A stretch of 64,000 bases of DNA. It comes from a virus. The notes under the pieces are model-generated. The model made no database searches. It saw only the letters and a program-made list of their open reading frames with translations, and was not told the DNA's origin. The stretch is from positions 1 through 64,000 of IMG/VR virus record IMGVR_UViG_3300009094_000001. One strand, written 5' to 3'. Numbering within the stretch: position 1 is the stretch's first letter; each line of letters opens with the position of its first letter. Of the stretch, positions 2,782 to 63,229 are shown in pieces. Made by a program: the position numbers and the translations under genes.

Positions 2782-3266
2782 CTGAATACGTCCTCGGCTT
2801 CGCCTTTACCAGAGATTACGCGGACTTTGACCGCGTGCTGTTGATTCGTAAAACCAAGCCCGCGTGGCAGGCCGGGAAACTTAACGGTGTCGGGGGAAAA
2901 ATCGAGACGGGGGATTTCACTCCGCATCGGGCCATATCCCGGGAGTTTGTCGAGGAAACCGGCATAGAGACGCTTCCATCTCGCTGGACTAAATTCGCCG
3001 TCATGGAATTTGCCGATTGCCGGGTCCATTGTTTTACCACTTGGTTCAATTGGAAAGAATTCAAGAAGGCGGTCCCGCTCACTGAGGAGTTGTTGGAGAG
3101 TTACCAGCTCGATTCGGTTTTCGATGAAAAAATGAAGGAAGCGAAAGCGCTTCCAAATTTGAGGTGGCTGATTCTTTTGGCAAGGGCGGCTTGGACTGCT
3201 GGAGTAGACGAGTTCCCAGTGCTACAGATTTTCGAGTCGGTCGAGTCGAAATACGCTACAGCATGA
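2778..3266 (+). CDS. NUDIX hydrolase
   Basis: NUDIX box GGKIETGDFTPHRAISREFVEETGI. Confidence 0.9.
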   Translation: MTEYVLGFAFTRDYADFDRVLLIRKTKPAWQAGKLNGVGGKIETGDFTPHRAISREFVEETGIETLPSRWTKFAVMEFADCRVHCFTTWFNWKEFKKAVPLTEELLESYQLDSVFDEKMKEAKALPNLRWLILLARAAWTAGVDEFPVLQIFESVESKYATA

Positions 3267-3799
3267 AATTCTGGCCCTCCGTTGGAACTCGTTCGGTGCT
3301 TTGGGGTGCTCACGCATTCTGGTTTCACCCGATTGTGGTTGCTCTCGCGTGGCGCAAGCTATATCGGCGATTTCCGAACCGCTGGGAGTGCCTCGCGATT
3401 TTCTGTCACGACCTCGGTTATTGGGGTTGCGACTCGATGGACGGGGACGAGGACGGGAAGTTTCATCCCTATGTCGGGGCCTTTCTCGCCTCGGAGTTGG
3501 CTTTGATTTTCGGAGCCGACGACAGCGATGTAAGCTATGTGGAGGAACTGGTCCTCGGCCATAGCCGGTCCTTTTGCGCCGAATCCGGCGAGAAGATTTC
3601 TGAGCTGTGCGACCCCGACAAGTATTCCATCCTTTACGAGCCCGCGTGGTTCTATTGGATTCGCACGATTTTGAGCGGAGAGATTCACGAGTATCGACGC
3701 AATGAAGAAATCAAACAAGGGTGCTGCATAGCTTCAACGTGGGCTTGGCTATGCGGGTATCGACGGTCCGTAAAAGCCCGCTTCTCCAAAATCAAATGA
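3263..3799 (+). CDS. HD-domain protein
   Basis: H...CHDLGYWG...HP...HS...DK pattern. Confidence 0.7.
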   Translation: MKFWPSVGTRSVLWGAHAFWFHPIVVALAWRKLYRRFPNRWECLAIFCHDLGYWGCDSMDGDEDGKFHPYVGAFLASELALIFGADDSDVSYVEELVLGHSRSFCAESGEKISELCDPDKYSILYEPAWFYWIRTILSGEIHEYRRNEEIKQGCCIASTWAWLCGYRRSVKARFSKIK

Positions 3800-4353
3800 A
3801 ACCATTGTTCCTGATTCTAACCCTCCTCGTGCTGGGGTTCGCCCCGCTGTCCCCTCCCCCGGACGAGCTTCCGAAAATTCTCGACTATTCAGAGGCGGTC
3901 GAGTTGCTGAGTCATTCACTGAACATCCCGGAGCCGGAATGGCCACTCGGCCCGGAAGACTCTGTATACCTCTCCCCGACGCAGGAGGAGATTTCGGAGC
4001 TGCTCTGTTTTATCAAGGACCGACGCCAGCTAATCCACTACGTCGTCGACGCGACCGACTGCGATGACCTCGCAACGGAGGCAAAATACTGGGCGACGGT
4101 CTGGCATTCCCGTAGCTACGACGGAGTGAATGCAGCGCTACTTTTCGGCAAGGCATATGTGAAGCTGGACGGAAACTACGAACTGCTGTTCCCCGGGACC
4201 GGCAACGCGCACGTCATCGGGTATCACGTCATCAACTTTGTGGTCCGGTCCGACGGCAAGGTGTTCTTTTTCGAGCCGCAATCCGGCCGTATTGCCCCGG
4301 TGGAATCTTTCATTTACGAGGACTCGGTTCAAGTCCTGCGACTGGAATATTGA
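3796..4353 (+). CDS. Signal-peptide protein with papain/transglutaminase-like domain
   Basis: Hydrophobic N-terminus; DCDDLA, HVIN and FFEPQ resemble a Cys-His-Glu triad. Confidence 0.6.
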   Translation: MKPLFLILTLLVLGFAPLSPPPDELPKILDYSEAVELLSHSLNIPEPEWPLGPEDSVYLSPTQEEISELLCFIKDRRQLIHYVVDATDCDDLATEAKYWATVWHSRSYDGVNAALLFGKAYVKLDGNYELLFPGTGNAHVIGYHVINFVVRSDGKVFFFEPQSGRIAPVESFIYEDSVQVLRLEY

Positions 4354-5840
4354 AAGCTTTCGACGAAAGCGGACTTTACCCATACCAGCCAACGCCTGCG
4401 AAATACTTGGCGCAGTTGTTGGAATCTGGCCAGAACTGTCTTGACGGCTCTGACTGCGGCGTCGGCAAGACGGCAGTCGCCAGCGCAATTATCCGCCACC
4501 TGAAACTTCCAACCCTCGTGCTGACTCCGCAAATTAACATTCCGAATTGGGAGTGGATGGGGAAGCACCTCGGGGTTGAATTCGACGTGACAAATGTTGA
4601 AGAGGTTCGCACCGGGAAAAGTCTCTTTGGCCGTTGGGAATTACCAAAGCCGCCCGGGCCGTTGCCGACGGAGCTACGTTGCACGCAATGTCAGCTCGTC
4701 GTGGAGCCGGAGAAGGGCTTGCCTTGCGCATACGGGGAATTTCATTGCGTGGAGACGAAGAAGCTGCCCCACCGCTACGGGAAATTTTTCTGGCACCCGG
4801 GGATACAGTTCTTGGTATTAGACGAATGTCATAAGTATTGTGCGCTAGATTCGCTGAATGCCGACATGGCGATTGCCGCGCGCCGGCAAGGAATCCGCAC
4901 GCTGGCGATTTCCGCCACTGCGGCCGATAGCCCGCTAGGACTCAAAGCGCTGGGATACCTGCTGGGGTTACACAGTCTCGTGGGCGAGGATTCCTTCTAC
5001 CGGTTCGCGTTTAGGTTTGGATGCCGCAAGCGCATTTTCGGCGGGCTTGAATTCGGGCGCGACGATGATGACCGCAAGGTCAAAATGCAGGCGTTACACC
5101 GTGCTATTTTCCCCTCCCGGGGGACCCGCGTCAGGATTGAAGACCTCGGTGACGCGTTCCCAGAATGTGCAATCACCGCCGAGCTTTTTGACTTCGGAGA
5201 TGCACAGAGAGTGAACGCACTTTACGCCACGATGGACGAAGCGCTCGCGGAATTGCAAGCGATGCAGCTTGCCGACAAATCGCCGGAGCACCCATTCACC
5301 AAGCTGATTCGCGCTCGGCAGGCCCTTGAGTTACTAAAAACGCCGCTGTATGCCCAATTAGCGCGGGATGAGGTGGAAGCAGGAAACAGCGTCGTTATTT
5401 TCGTCGCTTTTAAAGCGACTATGGACGCCTTGTGCGACGCGCTGGGGGTTTCTGCTCGGATTGAGGGGGGTCAATCGGCTGCATTGCGGGACAAAACGAT
5501 TCAAGATTACCTCGACGACAAAACTCGCATCCTCGTAACAAACGTCGATTGCGGTGGCACTGCGCTTAATCTCCCGGATGTGCGCGGCAAATTCCCGCGC
5601 GTCGGAATTGCATCCCTTGTGTATTCATCCAGAAAGATGAGACAGCTTTTTGGGAGATTGCGAAGAATTACTAGTAAAACTAAGTCTCGATATCGTGTGA
5701 TTTTAGCAGGAGGCACAAAAGAAGAGAAAATACATGCCAAAATGACCGCGAAGTTGGATGCGATTGACCTACTCAATGACGGAGACTTGCTTGCCGCGAA
5801 TTTGCCCACGGCTGTCGTAGAATGGCCAGAGGGTCTATGA
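4350..5840 (+). CDS. Superfamily 2 DNA helicase with Zn-finger insertion
   Basis: Walker A DCGVGKT, Walker B LDECH, SAT motif III, QLFGRLRR motif VI; TTG start overlaps the upstream stop. Confidence 0.9.
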   Translation: MKAFDESGLYPYQPTPAKYLAQLLESGQNCLDGSDCGVGKTAVASAIIRHLKLPTLVLTPQINIPNWEWMGKHLGVEFDVTNVEEVRTGKSLFGRWELPKPPGPLPTELRCTQCQLVVEPEKGLPCAYGEFHCVETKKLPHRYGKFFWHPGIQFLVLDECHKYCALDSLNADMAIAARRQGIRTLAISATAADSPLGLKALGYLLGLHSLVGEDSFYRFAFRFGCRKRIFGGLEFGRDDDDRKVKMQALHRAIFPSRGTRVRIEDLGDAFPECAITAELFDFGDAQRVNALYATMDEALAELQAMQLADKSPEHPFTKLIRARQALELLKTPLYAQLARDEVEAGNSVVIFVAFKATMDALCDALGVSARIEGGQSAALRDKTIQDYLDDKTRILVTNVDCGGTALNLPDVRGKFPRVGIASLVYSSRKMRQLFGRLRRITSKTKSRYRVILAGGTKEEKIHAKMTAKLDAIDLLNDGDLLAANLPTAVVEWPEGL

Positions 5841-6031
5841 CAAAAGAACAGACTAAAAAATATAACCGGAAATACCGGAAGGAAAACCTAAAGCGGTTGA
5901 GGGAATCGGGACGCGAATACTATAAAAAGAACCGCGCCGCTATCTTAGCACAGAAGCGCAAATACACGGTAAAAAATAAGCTTCGGATTCTTGCCAAGAA
6001 GCGCGAGTATTATTTGAAAAGAACTTCTTGA
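5837..6031 (+). CDS. Small very basic protein (YxxxN helical repeats)
   Basis: KKYNRKYRKEN, REYYKKN and REYY repeats resemble the N-terminal arms of HNH endonucleases, but there is no nuclease domain. Confidence 0.5.
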   Translation: MTKEQTKKYNRKYRKENLKRLRESGREYYKKNRAAILAQKRKYTVKNKLRILAKKREYYLKRTS

Positions 6032-6056
6032 CATTCTCACAAAATCGCGGACCTTT
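6027..6056 (+). promoter_or_regulatory. Phage promoter motif copy 2
   Basis: CTTGAC attctcacaaaatcgc GGACCTTT, 13 nt before ATG 6070. Confidence 0.8.
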
Positions 6057-6241: not shown

Positions 6242-7129
6242 ATGAGCGAAAATCTCTCTTCCTATCCATCCATCTTCGCCCTCGGGCACCGGAACATCGC
6301 CGACCTATTCGACGGGCCGGTCACAGTCGAGGAGAAAATCGACGGTTCCCAGTTCAGCATGGCGCGTGTAAACGGCGAGCTGGTTTGCAGGTCGAAGGGC
6401 CAGCAAATCATCGTCGGCGCACCTGAGAAAATGTTTGCCGCCGCAGTCGAGACTGCGCAGAAATTGGACCTGCGCGAGGGCTGGGTTTACCGATGCGAAT
6501 ACCTGAAATCTCCGAAGCACAACACGCTGGCGTATTCCCGGATTCCTAAGGACCATTTGATTTTGTTCGACGTGATGACGGGATACGAGACCTACCTGAC
6601 GCCGGCCGCGAAGAAGTTTGAAGCTGTTCGACTGGGTCTTGAAGTGGTGCCCTGTTTTCTGGTCGGGGAAACCTGCGTGATGGATATCCGCCCATTCATG
6701 GACCGAGAGAGCACTCTCGGCGGATGCAAAATCGAAGGCGTGGTCGTCAAGAACTACGCGCGCTTCGGCACGGATAAGAAAATCCTCATCGGCAAGTTCG
6801 TCTCCGCCGAGTTTAAGGAGAAGCACCAGCACGCGTGGAAGAAATCGAACCCGGGGCCGGCCGACGTGGTGGAGCACATCATTTCCGAGTTGAAGACGGA
6901 CGCTCGCTGGCGCAAAGCCGTGCAGCACCTTCGCGACGCCGGGAAGCTGACCGGGACGCCAACCGATATCGGGCCGTTGTTGATTGAACTCGGCACCGAC
7001 ACGGAGCGGGAAGAGTCCGAAGCAATCCGAGCATCTTTATGGAATCATTTCTGGCCGCAAATTCGGCGCGGAATCGCGAGCGGGTTTCCAGAGTGGTATA
7101 AGAAAGAAATCGGAATTATCGAATCATGA
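6242..7129 (+). CDS. ATP-dependent RNA ligase (Rnl2-like)
   Basis: Motif I EEKIDGSQF, LFDV, EGVVVK motif IV, GKFVSAEFKE motif V. Confidence 0.85.
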   Translation: MSENLSSYPSIFALGHRNIADLFDGPVTVEEKIDGSQFSMARVNGELVCRSKGQQIIVGAPEKMFAAAVETAQKLDLREGWVYRCEYLKSPKHNTLAYSRIPKDHLILFDVMTGYETYLTPAAKKFEAVRLGLEVVPCFLVGETCVMDIRPFMDRESTLGGCKIEGVVVKNYARFGTDKKILIGKFVSAEFKEKHQHAWKKSNPGPADVVEHIISELKTDARWRKAVQHLRDAGKLTGTPTDIGPLLIELGTDTEREESEAIRASLWNHFWPQIRRGIASGFPEWYKKEIGIIES

Positions 7130-21509: not shown

Positions 21510-21962
21510 ATGAGAACTGAACTTACTGACAAAGCCAGAGATTTCGCAGTGGAAGCCCACCGTGGACAATTTCGCAGAAACCGAACTACTCCCTATATTC
21601 TCCATCCAGCGCGCGTCGCAAAACACCTAGCTTCTAGGGGCGAGTCAGAAAACGTGGTTGCGGCAGCGTGGCTGCATGACGTTCTTGAAGACACACAGAC
21701 CACCGAGATTTTCCTTCGGTCCGCTGGTTTCCCGGACCGGGTTATTCAAGCCGTCGTTGCCCTTTCCAAACGCAAGGGCGAGAATTACGACGAATATTTG
21801 TCCCGGGTGATGTTTGATGCCATCGCCCGCAAGGTTAAAATCGCCGATATCCTTGACAACATCTCGGATTCCCCTACCCCCGGCCAGATTTCTCGCTACG
21901 CCAAAGCCCTGAACTTCCTCGTCAACCACCCCGGGGCCAAAAATTCACCGATTCCCGAATAA
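21510..21962 (+). CDS. RelA/SpoT-type HD hydrolase (small alarmone hydrolase/Mesh1-like)
   Basis: AHRGQFR...PYILHP...AAWLHDVLEDT...VKIADILDN. Confidence 0.9.
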   Translation: MRTELTDKARDFAVEAHRGQFRRNRTTPYILHPARVAKHLASRGESENVVAAAWLHDVLEDTQTTEIFLRSAGFPDRVIQAVVALSKRKGENYDEYLSRVMFDAIARKVKIADILDNISDSPTPGQISRYAKALNFLVNHPGAKNSPIPE

Positions 21963-45225: not shown

Positions 45226-45255
45226 AAAGGTCCACACTTCGGACCAAAAGTCAAG
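45226..45255 (-). promoter_or_regulatory. Phage promoter motif copy 5 (capsid)
   Basis: CTTGAC ttttggtccgaagtgt GGACCTTT. Confidence 0.8.
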
Positions 45256-52565: not shown

Positions 52566-52927
52566 TAATGAACAAATCTTCCAGCTGGCTCCAGCCACTT
52601 CTCGTCGCGGGAAATAAAGGTGTGGGTGTAGGCGTCTAACTGGTAAACCAGAGCTTCCCCCCGGTCCCTCCCAAAGAACCTTCTCATAATCCACGCAATG
52701 TCGTGGGAAACCTGACTGAGGTCGGAGTAAAAAACCATCCCCTTACATTCTTCCCAGCGGGCGAAGTCCTCGATAAATTCGGTGCTCGGCACCCACTTCA
52801 ACCAATCCTGCTTTACATTTTTCTTAAGTCGCTCGTCATCCCAGATGCACGCGAAGAAAAATCGAATAGGCTCAGCCGGCGGAGGCGGAAAAGGTTTTGT
52901 TTCCTCAGTTGTGTCGCCCAGTTCCAT
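52565..52927 (-). CDS. Hypothetical protein
   Basis: Stop overlaps the terminase ATG. Confidence 0.6.
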   Translation of the reverse strand: MELGDTTEETKPFPPPPAEPIRFFFACIWDDERLKKNVKQDWLKWVPSTEFIEDFARWEECKGMVFYSDLSQVSHDIAWIMRRFFGRDRGEALVYQLDAYTHTFISRDEKWLEPAGRFVH

Positions 52928-53861
52928 GTCGGGTCTCCGGGTTCAGCAGGAAATCGTCGTAGGTCGCGTGAAACGCCCACTCGGGGTTGTGACGCGGCTC
53001 CCAGCCAAGCGCGCGAATTTTCGAGTTGTCCATGATTTTTCGTAGCACGCCGACGGGTTGGCTCGGGTCGAAAACAATCTTGCCGCGATAGCCAACGACC
53101 TTGGCCAGCGTGTGCGCGAGGCAATCAACGGACCACTCCTCTCCAGAGCCGGTGTTGATAGGTTCGTCGTCCTCGTATTTCTGCATCACGGCGATGAGTG
53201 CGTTGGCGAGGTCGGCCGAGTAAAGCAGTTCCCGCTTCGCCGTGCCGTCGCCCCAAATCACGAACTCCGGCGCGTTCTCGCACTTCGCGCGGTGCAGTCT
53301 GGCGATAAGCCCGGGGACGAGGTGCGCGTCGTGTTCGTTGAAGTTGTCGTTTTCGCCGAAGAGATTGCAAGGCTGCGCGGAGACTACGTTCAGTTTGCCC
53401 GCGCGCCTCAAAAACTGTCCGAGGCGTATTCCGCAGAGCTTCGCCAGCGCGTAGCCTTCATTGGTTTGTTCAAGGGGTCCAGTAAGCAGGGCGGATTCTT
53501 TTATCGGCTGCTCCGCATTTTTTGGATAAATGCAGCTGCTCCCGAGGAACACCAGCTTTTCGCAGCCATACCTCGACGCGTTCAACATCACGTTCTCTTG
53601 GATGCGCAGATTATCGATGAGGAACTCCGACGGGCTCACAATATTCGCTTTGATTCCCCCAACGCGCGCGGCTGCGAGGAACACGTATTTCGGATTATGA
53701 CACGAAAACCACCACTCCACCGCGACGGGGTCGCATAGGTCCACCTCGTTGCGGGGGGCCGTGAGGATGTTAGTGAAACCCCTTTCGCGAAGTTCCCGAA
53801 CGAGCGCGGAGCCGACCAGCCCACGATGCCCGGCGACAAAAATCTTTGAATCTTTTTCCAT
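52905..53861 (-). CDS. fcl: GDP-L-fucose synthase-like epimerase/reductase
   Basis: AGHRGLVGS, LAAARVGGI, GSSCIYP, YALAK, PCNLFG and WGDG..RE. Confidence 0.92.
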   Translation of the reverse strand: MEKDSKIFVAGHRGLVGSALVRELRERGFTNILTAPRNEVDLCDPVAVEWWFSCHNPKYVFLAAARVGGIKANIVSPSEFLIDNLRIQENVMLNASRYGCEKLVFLGSSCIYPKNAEQPIKESALLTGPLEQTNEGYALAKLCGIRLGQFLRRAGKLNVVSAQPCNLFGENDNFNEHDAHLVPGLIARLHRAKCENAPEFVIWGDGTAKRELLYSADLANALIAVMQKYEDDEPINTGSGEEWSVDCLAHTLAKVVGYRGKIVFDPSQPVGVLRKIMDNSKIRALGWEPRHNPEWAFHATYDDFLLNPETRHGTGRHN

Positions 53862-53862
53862 G

Positions 53863-54561
53863 TTAAAAGGGGCGAATCGCTTCGATGAATTTATACTTCG
53901 GCCAATATCCGCGACTGTGCATCGCAAATCCGTAGTGAACAAGCGGGCTCGTGCGGTATCCGGCGTAATCATACAACGCGCAAACACCGTTCGTCTTTAC
54001 CATCCATTCCGGCTTGGGTCGTGCAGCATCCCCGGCGACGGGATGAAACATGCGCGCAAGCATTGACAAATCATCTTGGTGGTATACATTAGAATTGTGC
54101 GCGAAGTCCAGTTCATCATATTTCCAAGAAGCGAAAAGCTCCGCGATGTCAAGAAAATGCTGGGGGATGCCGAGGACCGCGCCCATGTAAATCGACTCCG
54201 GCGGAGTGTCGCAGAGGATTTCCATTTTCCCCGGCTCCGGCGGGCGCGGGGCGAACCCATAATTAATCACATCGTAGTCGGACAAAAGCACCGGCTCGTT
54301 TACACGCTCGCCGATGACATACGCGCCAAACCAACGGAGAAAACACGCGGCGGTGTAGTCCACGGGATACGCAGTCGGCTTGGCGTAATAATGCTCCTTG
54401 AAGAATTCAAAGCGGGGGTGGTCCCGGATATGACTCTCGTCGATGACGAGCGGCTCCCAGCCGGCCTTGCGCCAACTGCGCTCCCAGATTTTGATTAGCT
54501 CACGCTGCGATTGGTCGGACCAGAGACCGGGGACAGGGACATAATACGTGATAACCTTCAC
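53863..54561 (-). CDS. Putative glycosyltransferase
   Basis: W..SW...GW, CFLRW and LSDYDVIN (DxD); inside the sugar island. Confidence 0.6.
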   Translation of the reverse strand: MKVITYYVPVPGLWSDQSQRELIKIWERSWRKAGWEPLVIDESHIRDHPRFEFFKEHYYAKPTAYPVDYTAACFLRWFGAYVIGERVNEPVLLSDYDVINYGFAPRPPEPGKMEILCDTPPESIYMGAVLGIPQHFLDIAELFASWKYDELDFAHNSNVYHQDDLSMLARMFHPVAGDAARPKPEWMVKTNGVCALYDYAGYRTSPLVHYGFAMHSRGYWPKYKFIEAIRPF

Positions 54562-55298
54562 AATAACCTTTTCCGGGCAATTTCCAGCAAGCTGTTGTCC
54601 TTGGTTCCGTGGACCCATCGAACGCCGGCCGCGCGCAGGATATCCCACTCCGCTGGCTGGAACGTCGGACGCTTCCAGTGCGATTGAATGCCGGGGATGT
54701 TCGCCCAGCCCTTCAATTCATATTGCGGAGCTAACACCCAATCGTGTCCGCCGCCGCCCCGGATTACACTACCCGCTTGTTTCGCGAGAAAAGTCAAAAA
54801 ATCCAGCTCGCCAGAAATCAGCATGCAGTCCGCGTTAATGTGGGAACCGCCTTGGCAGCGCGCATTGCCGCCGACCATTGCGCCGGCAACTTTGACTCCA
54901 TGTTTACACAGCCGGTCCCACTCGCTGTGCAAATAGAGAAGCCCGTCGTTGACGAGCGGCGCGGTGTCCGAGGCGAGATTGAGAATGGCTTTATACTTTG
55001 GAAGCTTTCCGCCGGAGATTCCGCGCAGGCACCAGTCAATACTGCCGAAAAATAATCCGTTGCATCCCTGCGGCCATCCCGTCTCGGGACGTTGAGAAAT
55101 TGCGGTGAAAACGGTGAATTTCCTTGAGACGTGGTTAATCGAAGCGGTATCGTGTTTGCAGTCCCGTCTGGCCACGAACGCAAAATCACATGCTCCTGAG
55201 TGGACGGACTGGAGGTCCGCCAGCAGGCGCGCGAGCGTCATCGCTTGGGCCCGGTCGCCTTTCCAGTAAGACAGGAGAATCAGGATTTTGTCGGTCAC
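54558..55298 (-). CDS. Putative glycosyltransferase-like protein
   Basis: GWPQGCN, SD..PL, HINA, D-W and HG.KD; inside the sugar island. Confidence 0.5.
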   Translation of the reverse strand: MTDKILILLSYWKGDRAQAMTLARLLADLQSVHSGACDFAFVARRDCKHDTASINHVSRKFTVFTAISQRPETGWPQGCNGLFFGSIDWCLRGISGGKLPKYKAILNLASDTAPLVNDGLLYLHSEWDRLCKHGVKVAGAMVGGNARCQGGSHINADCMLISGELDFLTFLAKQAGSVIRGGGGHDWVLAPQYELKGWANIPGIQSHWKRPTFQPAEWDILRAAGVRWVHGTKDNSLLEIARKRLL

Positions 55299-56326
55299 TA
55301 TACCTTCCTCGCCATGTCAACCATCAGTTGACCGAAGTCGTTCGCGCCAGTTCCCGAGTTCGCGTGGTCTTCGATGATTTCCAGCACTGCGCTGACCAGC
55401 TTCGGTTCGACCTTCCGGTTCAACCCGAGAATTGGACAGTCCGGCCCGAGTGGTTGCCAGTGCTCGTCATCTTCCTTCATGTCCTCCTCAAGTTTCTCGT
55501 TGCCGACGCGGGTATAATCGTTAAAAATCTCGATGCCCGGAGAAATTTTCTTCACGAGCGCATCGATACGCAGCGGTTTCCCCATGTCAAGACAATACTT
55601 ACCGGGTTTAAAGGTCAACGTGGACAGCGCGAGCCCGACCGCTTCTTTGGCGGTAACGAAAAAACGAGCCATGTCCGGGTGATTGAGGGTGAACCTCGCC
55701 CCGAGTGTTCCTCCGGCTACCTTGCGTTCGACGATTTCCACCAGCGAACCGGCTGAACCTAGCACGTTGCCGAGTCGAATTGTCCTCGCGAGTTTGCAGT
55801 TCGCGTCAATCCACGCCTCAGCCAGCTTTTTACTCGCGCCCATGACGGTAGTCGGCTTCACTGCTTTGTCGGTGGAAACGTAAACGAGACGAACCCCGTG
55901 CTTCTCGCACTGCCGGGCCAGCCAAATGGTCGTTTGCGTGTTGTTCGCGAAAGCCGCGCGCGGATTTGATTCCATCAGCCCGACGTGCTTGTGTGCGGCG
56001 GTGTGGAAAACGCAGTCCACGCTGCCATCTCGCAGAAGGGTTGCGACTTCCTCGGAAAGCACGTCGGCAATAATAGGGTGAATCCAGTCCTTTCCCGGCT
56101 CGTCGCGCAAGCATCGAATCAACTGAAAAATCGAGTCCTCGCCGTGCCCGAGAATGTAAACGTTATTGGGGCTTGCCTTGTTGATTCTACGAACCAGCGC
56201 GGAGCCGATAGACCCGCCGGCACCGGTGACGAGGATGTTTTTCGTCAGCAGCTCGCGGTCAATGGCTTTCTCGTCGAAGGTGTGCTCCGGCCGGCGGAGC
56301 AGGTGTGCGTAGTCTTTATCAATCAC
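55298..56326 (-). CDS. CapD/PglF-like UDP-GlcNAc 4,6-dehydratase (soluble catalytic domain)
   Basis: TGAGGSIGS, AAHKHV, STDKAV, MGASK, GNVLGS.GS and M.RFF; start uncertain. Confidence 0.88.
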   Translation of the reverse strand: MIDKDYAHLLRRPEHTFDEKAIDRELLTKNILVTGAGGSIGSALVRRINKASPNNVYILGHGEDSIFQLIRCLRDEPGKDWIHPIIADVLSEEVATLLRDGSVDCVFHTAAHKHVGLMESNPRAAFANNTQTTIWLARQCEKHGVRLVYVSTDKAVKPTTVMGASKKLAEAWIDANCKLARTIRLGNVLGSAGSLVEIVERKVAGGTLGARFTLNHPDMARFFVTAKEAVGLALSTLTFKPGKYCLDMGKPLRIDALVKKISPGIEIFNDYTRVGNEKLEEDMKEDDEHWQPLGPDCPILGLNRKVEPKLVSAVLEIIEDHANSGTGANDFGQLMVDMARKV

Positions 56327-56349
56327 TGTATGTAAATTGAAGCAGAATT

Positions 56350-56931
56350 TTATTGTGGCCCGTCGGTAACCCGACTCGGGCATTGCTTATCCTGGCCATC
56401 CTCCGCTAGTTTCTGCTTCCCGGAAGGGCGATTACGCTCTGGTCCGGCTATGTCGGGAGTTATGGTCGGGAAGTTCGGCGAAGCAAACTCGCCAAAATAT
56501 TTGCGCGCGGCGACATCATAGGCTTTCGCGGCTTCGATTTCAAATTGAAAAGTCCCCAAGTGAATCTGTTTTCTACCCATCTGAATTTGCGCCGCCCACT
56601 TTTTATCTCGATTTTTCCATGATACTCCGCGATATCTGGACGAGGCCCTAGGTGATTTACGCAGGTGCCCCATCTTGTTTTGCGAGGAGGTCGCCGGCCG
56701 CAAATTTTCCCTCTGGTTATTAAGGCCGTCACCATCGCGATGGTCAATTTCCGAATGCCCGGGCAAAAGAAAACGATGGAGCCGCTGTGTCCCACTTCTT
56801 CGAGGGAGATTGCGAATTGCGTAGAAAGTATGCCGGTCCCTTCGGGCACACCACTTAAACTGATTAACCGCCTCGTAATCGGCGTCGTCAACCATTGCGA
56901 ATTTGCCCTGCGACAGCTTGATGGTCTTCAC
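56350..56931 (-). CDS. HNH endonuclease with AP2 domain
   Basis: IDHRDGDGLNNQRENLR; SRYRGVSW...AAKAYD...FGEFA.PNF. Confidence 0.9.
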   Translation of the reverse strand: MKTIKLSQGKFAMVDDADYEAVNQFKWCARRDRHTFYAIRNLPRRSGTQRLHRFLLPGHSEIDHRDGDGLNNQRENLRPATSSQNKMGHLRKSPRASSRYRGVSWKNRDKKWAAQIQMGRKQIHLGTFQFEIEAAKAYDVAARKYFGEFASPNFPTITPDIAGPERNRPSGKQKLAEDGQDKQCPSRVTDGPQ

Positions 56932-56938
56932 TGGAAAT

Positions 56939-57000
56939 TGGTGGACCCTATCGCGGCCCCGGCGTCCGGCTAACGGACGGAGACTGAGTTCTCAGTGTCC
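56939..57000 (-). ncRNA. Degenerate tRNA-like RNA (62 nt, no T arm)
   Basis: Acceptor GGACACU/AGGGUCC (6 of 7 pairs) plus ACCA; central hairpin CGUCCG/CGGACG. Confidence 0.45.
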
Positions 57001-57009
57001 GGCTTAAAT

Positions 57010-57094
57010 TGGCACTCGGGGCCGATTCGTTTTTGCATCCGTCGGCAATTTCGACGTGTATCACGCCGGTGTTTTATTCTTAAACTACCCGAGT
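57010..57094 (-). ncRNA. tRNA-like RNA with 16-nt T loop
   Basis: Perfect acceptor ACUCGGG/CCCGAGU plus GCCA; D arm GUUU/AAAC; anticodon stem CGGCG/CGUCG with non-canonical loop UGAUACA; T stem GCCGA/UCGGC. Confidence 0.65.
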
Positions 57095-57097
57095 TTT

Positions 57098-57260
57098 AGT
57101 GCCCCTGTCTTTATACCCCCGGGACGGGAGGGTTGTTGAGGTTCGGTGCAGGCGCGACCTGTAACGCACCGGAGCCTCAACTATCGCGATTTACCACCAT
57201 ACCCCGTATACCGGAGACAGGATTTACCACGCGATACATTCCCCCGTTGCTGCGGGAGAA
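57098..57260 (-). ncRNA. Unclassified structured RNA between tRNA-like elements
   Basis: Stems UUCUCCCG/CGGGGGAA, UAUCGCG/CGCGAUA, GUUGAGG/CCUCAAC, CGGUGC/GCACCG and CCUGUCU/AGACAGG; duplicated UGGUAAAUC. Confidence 0.5.
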
Positions 57261-57263
57261 ATT

Positions 57264-57336
57264 TGGCGGGCAGAGACGGGTTTTAACCGCCGTTTCCGAG
57301 ACAAAAGCTCGGTGTCCTCACTTAGACGATTCGCCC
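57264..57336 (-). tRNA. Atypical tRNA, anticodon UUU (Lys), CCA encoded
   Basis: GGGCGAA TC GTCTAAGTGAGGAC A CCGAG CTTTTGT CTCGG AAAC GGCGG TTAAAAC CCGTC TCTGCCC G CCA. Forms a cloverleaf with one acceptor mismatch and an atypical T loop. Confidence 0.7.
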
Positions 57337-57357
57337 TATCAAAAGAACAACCGCTAC

Positions 57358-57387
57358 AAAGGTCCGCAAAACGAACCCAAAGTCAAG
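57358..57387 (-). promoter_or_regulatory. Phage promoter motif copy 7 (RNA cluster/sugar island)
   Basis: CTTGAC tttgggttcgttttgc GGACCTTT. Confidence 0.8.
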
Positions 57388-57464
57388 CTACCGAACGCCC
57401 TTCGCTGCGACGAAAATGAACAGCACTGTGATGGCGACGAACGCTGCAAAAATCTCTACATTAG

Positions 57465-57740
57465 TCATGGCGCAACCTTATCACCGTTCTCCGGCTTGTC
57501 AAGCGGAAATTTCTCGTTGAAATTCGTGCAGCCCTCCGTCCGGCAGGTGGTGCCCCGCTTTGACGTGACGAGGATTTCCCCGCAGTCGGGACAGCGTTCG
57601 GGGTTGCCGGCGGTGTGGACGTTTTCTCCTGCAAGTCCACATTCCTTGCGTAACACTCGTTTATGTGCACCCCGGGGGTTCAATACCCGGCCCTCCGTTT
57701 CTTGCGCTTCTTTGGGCACTTGCACTTGCGGGCTTCCCAT
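57465..57740 (-). CDS. Small Zn-ribbon protein
   Basis: CPDCG...C...C; true start may be the TTG at about 57683. Confidence 0.5.
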   Translation of the reverse strand: MGSPQVQVPKEAQETEGRVLNPRGAHKRVLRKECGLAGENVHTAGNPERCPDCGEILVTSKRGTTCRTEGCTNFNEKFPLDKPENGDKVAP

Positions 57741-59835: not shown

Positions 59836-60348
59836 TCAGATGAAAAACTCGGGCTCTGGCAACGTCGGCGGTAGGCCAGCTCGTCGTCGCGCCGTGCGGA
59901 CACGATGGCAGTTGGAACACACCAAATCGCATTTTGCCATCTCCTTGAGAAGGTCTTCTCGCTTGGTCAGCTTCAACAAACTACTCACATTCGCGGATTT
60001 AGTCGAGGGGTCCCGGTGGTCAAAATCCATCGAGTGTGGATGAAAAATACCCCCGCAATCAGCGCATGGCTTTCGACTTTTTTCCGCCGCAATCATCTTA
60101 TAGCGGTCCCGGGAAAGCTGTCGGGACCATTCCTTTTGACGCTCTATTTTTGCCTCGGGGGGAAGCGCCACAAGCGCCCTCCTCCGAAGTAGCACGGCCT
60201 GTTTGTCGGGGGGTAGCGATGCCAATTTCTTAGCTCGGTCCTTCTCGGTTCGACAATCCCGACAGATATGGTCCCTAGCCCGCCGAGGGCCTTTTGAATG
60301 AAAGTGTTCTGGGGGTCTAATGGCTTTGCATCGATTACAAGTTTTCAT
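59836..60348 (-). CDS. HNH endonuclease
   Basis: PCADCG...MDFDHRD...EMAKCDLVCSNCHRVRT. Confidence 0.88.
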   Translation of the reverse strand: MKTCNRCKAIRPPEHFHSKGPRRARDHICRDCRTEKDRAKKLASLPPDKQAVLLRRRALVALPPEAKIERQKEWSRQLSRDRYKMIAAEKSRKPCADCGGIFHPHSMDFDHRDPSTKSANVSSLLKLTKREDLLKEMAKCDLVCSNCHRVRTARRRAGLPPTLPEPEFFI

Positions 60349-60354
60349 ACCCCC

Positions 60355-60384
60355 AAAGGTCCGCACTAAAAACCCAAAGTCAAG
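60355..60384 (-). promoter_or_regulatory. Phage promoter motif copy 9
   Basis: CTTGAC tttgggtttttagtgc GGACCTTT, 6 nt before the ATG. Confidence 0.8.
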
Positions 60385-60721
60385 GGCTTTTAACCTCGCG
60401 GGTCTCAAAAATAATATTGCCCGGGAGGCGTCGAGCGACATCGTGGGGCCCCCAAGTCCCCCGGGTCTATACCGATAAAGTGCTCAGAATCAGGACGTTT
60501 CGTCGGTCCGGCGGTTCGGTGGCAGGGCGCGCCACAGGCTGACGGATTGTGCCCAGTGTGCGGGCTACAGGTCGTTGAGGCGTAGTGACATCGAGGCGGT
60601 GGGGCGTTTTGGCGTGAGAATCACGCACCGACTGTGCCAAAAAGTCACTTCTGGGTCGTTTTGTCGCGCTTCGCTCGATTTAAATTCGCTCAAGCTGTAG
60701 GTCAAGCCACAAAATACCTGC

Positions 60722-61486: not shown

Positions 61487-63229
61487 TCACTCCACAGTAA
61501 CGCTCTTGGCCAGACCACGCGGCTTGTCCACGTCTCGGCCGAGTGCAACAGCGATGTGATACGCGAACAGTTGCAACGGTATCGCTGCCAGCATTGGCAC
61601 AAAGGGCTCAGCAGTCTCGGGCAGCCAGATTACGTCGTCAACCTCGGATGCGATGCTGTCGTTGCCCTCGGTAGCAAGTGCAATCACCGGACCACCACGG
61701 GACTTAATCTCGCGTAGGTTACTGAACGTCTTGCTGTATAGCCTACCGTTCGGTATGACGATGACGCTTGGGGTGCTGCTGTCAATCATCGCCAGCGGTC
61801 CATGCTTCATCTCTCCGGCTGGCAATCCTTCTGCGTGAATGTAGGAAATCTCCTTGAGCTTCAACGCGCCTTCCAACGCAATCGGGTAGTTGTATCCTCG
61901 GCCAAGGAAAAAGAAACTCTTGGCGTTTGCGTATTTGGTGGCGATGCTTTGAATTTCGTAATCCTTGGCGAGTAGCATTTCAATTTGCTCTGGTATCGCC
62001 TTGAGTGCGGATTGCAAAGCCTTGTCGTGGGGTGGAACTGCAAGTGAGGCTAGCACACGAAGCTGGGCGGTGAATGTTTTCGTCGCAGCCACTCCAATCT
62101 CGGGGCCCGCGTCTAGATAGATAACGCGGTGTGCTTCTCGCGCAAGCGTGCTGCCGGGCGCGTTACAGATTGCAACGGTCCAGTGGTCTTTGTTCTCGCG
62201 AACGCAGGCCAACGTGTCTGCCGTCTCTCCGCTTTGGGACAGCGCCAGAATCACAGGTCTTTTTCCAGTGACGTGGCTTGAATACCGGAACTCGCTAGCG
62301 AAATCAACCTGCGTAGGAATACCGGCGAACTCCTCAAAAAAGTATTTGCCAATCAGCGCTGCGTGTCTGCTCGTGCCGCAGGCGGGAATGAAAATCTGCT
62401 CGACTCCGCGTAGCGCAGATAGAGCCCCGTCGCTGCTGCTAATCCTTCTGATTACTTCCGGCTGCTCGTAAATCTCACTGAGCATCGCGTGGGGAAATCC
62501 TGCGCTGGGGTCAGTGGGCGGTGCGCTGCGCAGCCTCTTCATTTCTCTGAACTGTAGTTCAGGAGTAAGCGCCACTAAATCACCGTCCCGCAAGTAAACA
62601 ACATTCAGAGTGTGCTCGCGAATTGCCTCGGCATCGCTGGATAAAAACCTCTCGTTATCTCCAATGCCGACGACAAGGGGCAATCCTTTACAAGCGCCGA
62701 CCACCACACCGGGCCAATCCACACAGGCCACGGCGATTGCGTAGTCTCCGACGACCTCGCGCAAGGCATCAGCAACTGAGCTGGCTAGATGAAAACGCTT
62801 TTCGTAATACGCTCCAATCAACCACGCGAGAACTTCGCTATCCGTGCCGGAAGAGAACCGAGGCTCTCCTTGCAGCTCTCGAATACGGTTGTGCAGATAC
62901 CCAACGTTCTCGATGATGCCGTTATGGACAACTGCAATTCTCCCGCTCTTGTCAGTGTGTGGGTGCGCGTTGGCGTCACTCGGTTCTCCATGCGTGGCCC
63001 AGCGCGTGTGGCCGATACCGGTTGTTCCTCGAATCTCTACGGGGTCGGCGAGAAGGAGCGGCTCAAGGCCCTCGCTGATTTTCCCGGCCTTCTTGCGGAC
63101 AAACATTCGGTCATCTGACACGACTGCGAGGCCAGCGCTATCATAGCCCCGATACTCAAGCTTCTTGAGGCCGGCGAGGATAATCGGCTTGGCTTGGTGC
63201 TGCCCAACGTATCCGTAAATTCCACACAT
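61487..63229 (-). CDS. glmS: Glutamine--fructose-6-phosphate aminotransferase
   Basis: MCGI, EYRGYDSAG, GHTRWATHG, HNGIIEN, SQSGETADT, EGALKLKEISYIHAEG and PRGLAKSVTVE. Confidence 0.97.
   Translation of the reverse strand: MCGIYGYVGQHQAKPIILAGLKKLEYRGYDSAGLAVVSDDRMFVRKKAGKISEGLEPLLLADPVEIRGTTGIGHTRWATHGEPSDANAHPHTDKSGRIAVVHNGIIENVGYLHNRIRELQGEPRFSSGTDSEVLAWLIGAYYEKRFHLASSVADALREVVGDYAIAVACVDWPGVVVGACKGLPLVVGIGDNERFLSSDAEAIREHTLNVVYLRDGDLVALTPELQFREMKRLRSAPPTDPSAGFPHAMLSEIYEQPEVIRRISSSDGALSALRGVEQIFIPACGTSRHAALIGKYFFEEFAGIPTQVDFASEFRYSSHVTGKRPVILALSQSGETADTLACVRENKDHWTVAICNAPGSTLAREAHRVIYLDAGPEIGVAATKTFTAQLRVLASLAVPPHDKALQSALKAIPEQIEMLLAKDYEIQSIATKYANAKSFFFLGRGYNYPIALEGALKLKEISYIHAEGLPAGEMKHGPLAMIDSSTPSVIVIPNGRLYSKTFSNLREIKSRGGPVIALATEGNDSIASEVDDVIWLPETAEPFVPMLAAIPLQLFAYHIAVALGRDVDKPRGLAKSVTVE

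Follow-up and report, generated by a model that had tools for sequence, protein, structure and literature searches.

Why would a phage lineage keep, beside a transfer RNA (tRNA), further tRNA-derived RNAs that are without decoding features but retain their shape, and why do close relatives exchange such modules? The question is raised by a ~450-nt locus in the IMG/VR virus record IMGVR_UViG_3300009094_000001, a phage genome of 72,578 base pairs (bp) from a soil metagenome that has direct terminal repeats and is rated complete. The window analysed here is the first 64 kb (64,000 nucleotides, nt) of that record; all positions refer to it unless another contig is named, and the features of the locus lie on its minus strand. 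The locus is an array of four RNA modules downstream of a promoter-like motif, namely a tRNA-Lys(UUU) (element 1), a three-hairpin RNA, a non-decoding cloverleaf (element 2) and a 71-nt unit (element 3). We lean towards the view that these modules are co-transcribed and cut apart by host tRNA-maturation enzymes, and that element 2 is kept for its shape.

Much of the argument is carried by element 2 (57010-57094, 85 nt). Its acceptor stem (ACUCGGG/CCCGAGU) forms seven of seven possible Watson-Crick pairs and is followed by GCCA, an arrangement (perfect 7-bp Watson-Crick stem plus NCCA at 55-95 nt) that is found nine times in the whole genome when both strands are counted. At minimum energy the element folds into a cloverleaf (z = -2.83; 2 of 200 shuffles do as well), in which a 4-bp D arm is accompanied by a T stem of 5 bp whose loop has 16 nt. 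The anticodon hairpin can be drawn either with 7 bp and a 3-nt loop or with 5 bp and a 7-nt loop that has G33 in place of U33. A preliminary description of the locus, made from the sequence alone, had reported an 85-nt element with a perfect acceptor stem, no U33 and a 16-nt T loop, and all of these features are confirmed.

The orthologue of element 2 in the closest relative, a contig designated L003 whose terminase is 94% identical to that of the window, reveals which parts of the element are held constant. Of 22 pairs, 20 are unchanged, one alternates between G-U and G-C, and one is compensated (C-G to U-A). There are no changes in the acceptor, D-arm and T stems, and the differences are confined to the anticodon hairpin, the T loop (16 versus 14 nt), one D-loop base and the tail (GCCA versus CAAA). 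Furthermore, among the rows listed for contigs of the sequencing runs X5 and X6, the three element 2 indels (57058, 57056 and 57030) all fall in the anticodon hairpin or the T loop. Given that the loop is kept neither in length nor in sequence, decoding is not the selected property. The earlier suggestion that selection acts on shape and not on decoding therefore holds for element 2, both in its three invariant stems and in its compensated anticodon stem.

The L003 orthologue folds with z = -4.78 and has a 6-nt anticodon loop. It scores 31.3 bits against the Rfam tRNA gathering threshold of 29, with the T and anticodon loops treated as indels, and it was neither listed in a faster gathering-mode Rfam run nor called by ARAGORN. 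A covariance model built from two element 2 sequences (window and L003) matches the tRNA-Met genes of two more distant relatives, L077 (21.7 bits, E 6e-5) and L015 (17.0 bits, E 4e-4), as well as three tRNA-like elements of L077 and a further L077 stretch at 3615-3702 (14.4 bits). Because the orthologue passes the Rfam threshold and the model finds true tRNAs, we take element 2 to be derived from a tRNA. Weak matches of the same model in L017 and L005 (E 0.3 and 2.5) lie inside conserved coding DNA and were taken as chance. An exact pattern for the element 2 core matched only the L003 contig, and a D-arm pattern returned five loci among metagenome contigs, of which two represent the L003 phage (L012 is the same contig and L013 is identical over 720 of 720 nt) and three are chance matches of 23-25 nt.

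Element 1 (57264-57336) has the features expected of a tRNA with an encoded GCCA end. ARAGORN, run with default settings, calls nothing in the window or the 72.6-kb genome other than a 73-nt tRNA-Lys(ttt) at 57336-57264, and the Rfam tRNA model RF00005 gives 44.2 bits against a gathering score of 29. The tRNA-finder check proposed for the cluster thus came out in favour of element 1, and the 73-nt cloverleaf with a UUU anticodon, G37/U38 and the T loop UUAAAAC is established as it had been described. The anticodon loop CUUUUGU has 7 nt, with U33, a purine at position 37 (G37) and U38. The elbow is non-canonical, since the D loop AAGUGA is without GG and the T loop UUAAAAC is without U-U-C. Similar features occur in the tRNA-Met genes of the relatives L016 (60.8 bits) and L019 (66.1 bits), where the T loops are UGAAAAU and UUAAAAU and the D loops again are without GG; those of L015 and L077 have canonical D- and T-loop forms. 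Because the odd elbow recurs in these high-scoring tRNAs, it looks like a lineage trait and not like decay, and we consider that tRNA-Lys probably works as a tRNA and decodes. Lysine codon usage was uninformative on this matter (AAA accounts for 329 of 824 Lys codons in 34 open reading frames (ORFs), with no early/late difference). An exact tRNA-core pattern found 0 matches in viral contigs, and neither ARAGORN nor Rfam called a transfer-messenger RNA in the window or its relatives.

Between the two cloverleaves lies a conserved three-hairpin RNA (57135-57263, ~130 nt), which the earlier account of the cluster omitted. Its fold from 57263 to 57135 has z = -3.47, with none of 200 shuffles as good, and comprises hairpin 1 at 57260-57239, hairpin 2 at 57236-57182 and hairpin 3 at 57181-57135. 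The consensus fold with L003 contains 34 pairs, among which three are compensatory and several are G-U pairs possible on the minus strand alone; a separate two-sequence alignment of this RNA was misregistered at its 3' end. In hairpin 2, GUGGUAAAUC occurs twice, and the two identical copies lie opposite each other, so that the internal loop they build has two-fold symmetry and contains tandem G/A oppositions. L003 carries the pair without any change, and in a contig of run X6 the second copy survives although its surroundings differ. The symmetric loop is a candidate for binding by a dimeric protein, or for a new RNA motif. The three-hairpin RNA matches no Rfam family and has no blastn homologue in six more distant loci, and an exact pattern for the hairpin 2 core matched only the L003 contig. 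A scan for two GUGGUAAAUC copies gave 55 loci, of which 54 are unrelated coding tandem repeats and one is the L003 contig. The RNA is followed, after 57135, by a 35-nt spacer (57095-57129) that is missing from L003.

Element 3 (56935-57005) requires a different interpretation from the one first offered. The preliminary description had viewed 57000-56939 as a 62-nt tRNA mimic without a T arm, closed by an acceptor stem. This proposed stem has six of seven pairs and an A/G mismatch, and stems in which six or more of seven positions pair (counting G-U), followed by NCCA, number 1199 in the genome on both strands, or about one per 120 nt. The minimum-energy fold has three hairpins without the proposed stem (z = -1.39; 17 of 200 shuffles do as well), neither Rfam nor ARAGORN finds a tRNA match, and neither L077 nor L015 offers a strand with which the closing stem could pair. 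Thus, a stem that is at chance level and missing from the minimum-energy fold leaves the idea of an acceptor-closed tRNA mimic without its footing.

Conservation in element 3 extends to its last hairpin, in which the loop GCGAUAG and the tail ACCAAUUU are retained and one stem pair is swapped from C-G to G-C in L077. The 3' half of the element matches L077 3020-3053 at 80% of 35 nt (E = 0.005) and also aligns with L015, although the terminases of L077 and L015 are 64% identical to that of the window. Element 3 is missing from L003 and present in the contigs of X5, X6 and X8; the X8 contig has two differences in 81 nt here versus 26 in ~160 nt over the small upstream ORF and promoter. A G inserted at 56997 in the X5 and X6 contigs would extend the first hairpin of the fold and interrupt the proposed stem. 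We regard element 3 as a conserved RNA module, on the strength of these comparisons, and it is flanked by a direct repeat, CCAAUUU.

Directly downstream is an HNH endonuclease gene (56350-56931, minus strand, GTG start) that matches PHROG 99 and six further PHROG families, five annotated as HNH endonuclease and one of unknown function. L003 does not have the gene, and in X5, X6 and X8 the contigs part from the window at position 56930, beyond which they resemble the spacer of L003. The gene is an insertion private to this phage. Element 3 is kept where the HNH gene is missing. The possibility that the element travels with the gene was rejected, as HNH relatives are 39-47% identical, occupy unrelated contexts and have no element 3 upstream. 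Three HNH genes are present in the 72.6-kb genome (9496-10014 on the plus strand, 56350-56931 and 59836-60441 on the minus strand), one of them with an AP2 domain.

The exchange of tRNAs between relatives was also absent from the earlier account. L003 keeps the small ORF, the promoter-like motif, the three-hairpin RNA and element 2, and its slot for element 1 holds another tRNA (47% identity in a forced alignment). The X5, X6 and X8 contigs join 57263 to 57349 or 57339 across 77, 158 or 312 other letters. Similarity in the 21-nt 5' leader that runs from the motif to the tRNA (57337-57357) ends at 57349 in X5 and X6 and at 57339 in X8. The junctions of these contigs therefore place the beginning of the exchanged segment directly behind the CCA and its end within the leader. 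More broadly, a tRNA lies upstream of the terminase gene in five of seven related loci that hold at least 3.5 kb of upstream sequence (L003, L015, L016, L019 and L077), and none was found upstream of the terminase in L014 or L017.

The array of L077 provides the most elaborate version of this arrangement. Following tRNA-Met there are four more modules, beginning with the homologue of element 3. Next comes a cloverleaf whose anticodon loop has 5 nt. The third module shares the D and T arms of the tRNA-Lys (77% of 64 nt, E 6e-7) and has an 8-nt anticodon loop, no CCA and an Rfam score of 39.6 bits; the fourth, again a cloverleaf, has a T loop of 9 nt. The anticodon loops of these three tRNA-like cloverleaves are 5, 8 and 5 nt long. 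Among 11 cloverleaf elements in six phages, five have 7-nt anticodon loops and six do not. In L019 and L077, further RNA modules follow a protein gene.

Some additional RNA candidates in these relatives deserve mention. L077, a 12.7-kb contig binned as 'Candidatus Peribacteraceae', carries the richest array (2908-3720 and 3995-4400, with two large RNAs), and its binning may or may not be a pointer to the host. Related structured RNAs of ~250-370 nt occur in L016 (4634-4925), L019 (7180-7527) and L077 (4045-4400), with no Rfam match at E<=5 for the first two or at E<=1 for L077. Another conserved, RNA-like stretch follows tRNA-Met in L015 (7150-7300), L016 (4390-4500) and L019 (6670-6800); it has the core ...GAAGCUGCC.CGAAAG.UGGCA..GGUCUAAAC.GUC... 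and no Rfam match. Weak Rfam matches to ctRNA_p42d, mraW, ZTP, SpF41, mir-731 and Plastid-ycf2 were far below their gathering scores and were taken as chance.

The boundaries between the modules of these arrays are occupied by the pentamer AAUUU. All three stretches first singled out in the window lie where they had been placed and are each followed by (A)AUUU, with CCAAAUUU past 57264, GCCAAUUU past 57010 and ACCAAUUU past 56939, and the modules of the window each end in purine-CCA plus AAUUU. In 4115 nt of RNA arrays (eight stretches from six phages) AATTT occurs 27 times versus 5.6 expected from the same loci (P ~6e-11), and pentamers of the same composition occur 4-11 times in the same arrays. 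AAUUU sits 0-5 nt before the next module, and splitting the arrays after it separates the modules cleanly. This punctuation counts towards the idea that the elements may act as processing signals. AATTT clusters in L017 and L014 were rejected as RNA arrays, being a 180-bp terminal direct repeat and coding DNA; in L017 (1-300) the 180-bp direct repeat stands at the contig start and is probably part of a terminal repeat.

The promoter-like motif ahead of the array (TTGACT-N17-ACCTTT, 57358-57386) is 83% identical in L003. Seven matches occur in the window versus 0.05 expected, and there are 10 in the whole genome, most of them 1-13 nt before an ATG. With this spacing the motif behaves like a promoter for short-leader or leaderless genes, and we infer that it functions as a phage promoter. 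A similar motif precedes the tRNA arrays of L015, L016, L019 and L077. Thus, the promoter motif noted before the cluster proved real, both in its excess over expectation and in its preserved position among relatives. A combined promoter-plus-leader pattern had no match in genome contigs. The copies are located at 452, 6028, 34683, 45254, 49839, 57386, 59827 and 60383 in the window and at 64474 and 65386 in the rest of the genome. Over these copies the motif takes the form TTGAC(T/A), a 17-nt spacer and A(C/T)CT(T/C)T, in which the -10-like element is unusual; the spacing points to mRNAs that have a short leader or none, and perhaps to a sigma factor specific to the phage or to a polymerase that has been modified. 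A CCAAUUU after the copy at 45254 sits within a hairpin-like stretch.

On the minus strand between 57388 and 56932 there is no ORF of at least 40 aa and no terminator-like site, and the consensus folds of the three-hairpin RNA and of element 2 contain G-U pairs that could form on the minus strand alone. For these three reasons, the modules are best regarded as parts of one predicted transcript.

How such a transcript might be used can be outlined. A phage-type promoter would drive a single RNA carrying the tRNA slot, the three-hairpin RNA, element 2 and element 3, and this RNA would continue into the HNH, sugar epimerase and terminase genes. RNase P would then cut on the 5' side of the acceptor-type stems, and an RNase E-like cut or 3' trimming would take place in the AAUUU just after each CCA. 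E. coli RNase E is described as cutting 1-3 nt past an encoded CCA (PMC2190699) and a 3' RCCA motif as an RNase P determinant (PMC12710915). Of an RNase P substrate one would expect an acceptor-type stem of about 7 bp, stacked on a T stem, and a 3' RCCA; the window copy of element 2 has a 7-bp stem, a 5-bp T stem and GCCA, but L003 and the X8 contig have no CCA and the T loop is 14-16 nt long. The cuts would release tRNA-Lys, the RNA between the cloverleaves and the downstream mRNA. tRNA-Lys would probably supply lysine decoding during infection, and element 2 would serve as a shape-only module for processing and end protection, to which a factor of host or phage that recognises the shape of a tRNA may also bind. 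Transcription, cleavage, aminoacylation and an effect on the host are all inferred here from sequence.

A number of observations weigh against this processing model. Regarding element 2, there was no ARAGORN call for the window copy even at -ps80 (76 genome-wide calls) or at -ps70 -i (230 calls), and no Rfam tRNA match at E<=10 in 1.3 kb or in 171 nt of sequence. The check for covariation did yield a compensatory change, which is the part that stood, but with two full sequences (window and L003) the signal consists of a single compensatory pair. The encoded CCA, first presented as a fixed feature, has not proven to be one: element 2 ends in CAAA in L003, and the CCA after it is missing from the X8 contig as well. 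RNase P reads the elbow of its substrates, and because the elbow here is altered by a 16-nt T loop and a D loop without GG, cleavage is not assured. Regarding element 1, the acceptor stem is imperfect (a G5-U68 pair and an A6/C67 mismatch), and the minimum-energy fold is a cloverleaf but with a z of only -1.5. In addition to this mismatch, G37 cannot carry t6A. The nearest sequence to tRNA-Lys is L077 3134-3204, which has an 8-nt anticodon loop and no CCA. The tRNA in the L003 slot (2934-3005, 45.3 Rfam bits) has a 5-nt anticodon loop in the Rfam alignment; its ARAGORN label SeC(tca) is probably an artefact of forcing a 7-nt loop. L003 also departs from the punctuation, with AACUU after its tRNA and CAAAAUUU after element 2. 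Finally, none of the sequencing runs listed as holding the stretch is recorded as RNA, and the RNase E step presumes a host with this enzyme.

An alternative that we consider unlikely, and yet the most serious of the competing explanations, is that the array counters host defence. According to this proposal tRNA-Lys is a cleavage-resistant substitute, and element 2 and its relatives, with loops of 3-8 nt, are decoys or inhibitors that capture anticodon nucleases or other proteins recognising tRNA shape. Turnover of the slot between close relatives is what an arms race would predict, and six of the 11 cloverleaf elements have anticodon loops that are not 7 nt long; however, the loops of element 2 are not kept between the window and L003, which would be odd for a decoy of one fixed enzyme, and the locus has no link to a defence gene or to a trigger. 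Cleavage-resistant phage tRNAs are described in PMC11464382, PMC12409363, PMC10264068 and PMC11555353. Specifically, PMC12409363 gives the AriB site of E. coli tRNA-Lys as U36-A-A-U-C|A41 and reports that changes at positions 39 and 41 protect the tRNA-Lys of T5. The anticodon arm of our tRNA-Lys reads U36-G-U-C-U-C and is thus without that site. Like the T5 tRNA-Lys(UUU) that faces the PARIS nuclease AriB, it is phage-borne, differs from the E. coli AriB site and has no A37. In contrast, the tRNAs of T5 do not otherwise depart from the canonical form, whereas our tRNA-Lys has non-decoding cloverleaves beside it and no defence system is in view. Furthermore, G37 excludes t6A, which a title among the references of PMC12409363 presents as a positive determinant for PrrC, and the authors of that paper raise the possibility that overexpressed viral tRNA inhibits AriB. 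These points, which take the E. coli site and not a host copy as their reference, make the tRNA-Lys no more than compatible with a resistant substitute. The substitute idea also fits element 1 only.

The phage encodes an RNA ligase family protein, which this defence-related explanation could also accommodate, since T4 ligase is reported to mend tRNA-Lys cut by PrrC (PMC10264068); however, RNA ligase family proteins of phages have other uses. The gene is located in the replication module at 6242-7129 on the plus strand (PF09414, 55.7 bits; phrog_548), with a motif copy upstream at 6028-6056, and its product could be a tRNA-repair enzyme or have another role. We hold similarly low expectations for a broader version of the proposal, in which an AAUUU-punctuated operon of tRNA-shaped RNAs forms a modular, RNA-only counter-defence cassette whose non-decoding cloverleaves act in trans as decoys or inhibitors of host factors that recognise tRNA shape, such as tRNA-cutting immune nucleases, and whose slot supplies a resistant form of whichever tRNA is attacked by the host of the moment. 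This version pertains to fast-evolving elements of soil phages with a lineage-specific elbow and anticodon loops of 3 to 8 nt.

It is still less probable that the folded RNAs other than the tRNA form a long 5' untranslated region of a late operon and act in cis, for example in antitermination or mRNA stability, without being released. The RNAs do separate the promoter-like motif from the genes for epimerase and terminase, no terminator-like site is present, the epimerase gene directly follows the array in L003, and there is precedent in the two-hairpin antitermination RNAs of lambdoid phages, such as the put RNA of HK022. However, element 2 is tRNA-derived and keeps a full cloverleaf with an acceptor-type end, the modules are shuffled and AAUUU-punctuated like separate units, and in L019 and L077 there are further modules behind a protein gene. 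The remaining explanation, that only tRNA-Lys is a gene and that elements 2 and 3 are dying tRNAs or scars of the HNH insertion, is disfavoured and very unlikely: the window copies of both elements are missed by tRNA finders, the HNH gene adjoins and stems like the proposed acceptor stem of element 3 are as common as chance predicts, but three stems of element 2 have no changes against 24% divergence in the ORF and its stem change is compensated, and element 3 recurs in contigs from three further runs (with 2 differences in 81 nt in X8), remains recognisable in its 3' half in L077 and L015 despite 64% terminase identity, and is present without the HNH gene.

The processing model that we prefer has partial parallels in known systems. 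In the tRNA region of phage T4, a tRNA cluster is accompanied by the species 1 and 2 RNAs, which are small and stable and have no assigned role. The resemblance would extend to co-transcription of tRNA and non-tRNA RNAs and to the use of host tRNA-processing enzymes, and it includes the presence of homing endonuclease genes among them. Unlike T4, the present locus has only one tRNA slot, which is exchangeable, cloverleaves whose anticodon loops measure 3-8 nt, a spacer fixed as AAUUU and a promoter motif specific to the phage. Herpesvirus MHV68 produces tRNA-like RNAs linked to microRNA hairpins, with a polymerase III promoter inside the unit and cutting by RNase Z. These uncharged viral units provide a processing handle for adjacent small RNAs, as the modules here may do, although MHV68 is a eukaryotic virus with an internal promoter and the promoter in our case is external. 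In mitochondria, tRNA punctuation and t-elements likewise employ non-decoding tRNA shapes to mark RNA ends, where RNase P and RNase Z cut (PMC1920247, PMC3790967). Those systems are organellar and serve mRNA ends, whereas the phage T loop is far from canonical and its cleavage is proposed from sequence. GOLLD and ROOL are also structured RNAs of unknown function beside phage tRNA genes (PMC5737381, PMC12286853), but the RNAs described here are much smaller and have no Rfam match to either family. A literature search found no phage operon that combines non-decoding cloverleaves, a fixed spacer and an exchangeable slot, and such a search cannot prove that none exists.

Given that phage tRNAs have recently been shown to defeat tRNA-cutting bacterial immunity, the fate of the non-decoding cloverleaves is of broader interest. 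If they are processed and stable, they might represent the first tRNA-like punctuation in a phage, or RNA decoys against tRNA-targeting defence, and might provide a new phage RNA tool. If the counter-defence cassette were true, it would be the first tRNA-punctuated RNA operon described in a phage.

The surroundings of the array complete the picture. Reading from 57700 to 56700 on the minus strand, the order is a Cys-rich ORF, a small ORF, the motif, the leader, the tRNA, ~170 nt of non-coding sequence, element 2, element 3 and the HNH gene. Directly upstream of the array, the Cys-rich ORF (57740-57465, minus strand, 91 aa) has a C-x15-CPDC-x16-C-x4-C pattern with the look, by eye, of a zinc ribbon, and it gave no match in a search confined to PHROG, with Pfam not searched. 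The small ORF (57388-57468, minus strand) encodes a hydrophobic peptide of 26 aa that lies outside the array and is conserved in L003, with 76% nucleotide identity over its 3' part. Elsewhere, the proteins encoded in the window include a DNA polymerase, helicases, an exonuclease, tail-fibre-like proteins and the large terminase, and a phage collection yielded no cultured relatives by DNA or terminase protein.

On either side of the array, at 52905-56383 and 61487-63229 and on the minus strand in both cases, there are two genes resembling nucleotide-sugar epimerases and one resembling GlmS, with glutamine amidotransferase and SIS domains. These genes suggest sugar modification of the virion, DNA or host surface. 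A small HD_4/HD-domain phosphohydrolase (phrog_990) is encoded at 21510-21962 on the plus strand, the HD_4 domain being of the type found in (p)ppGpp hydrolases.

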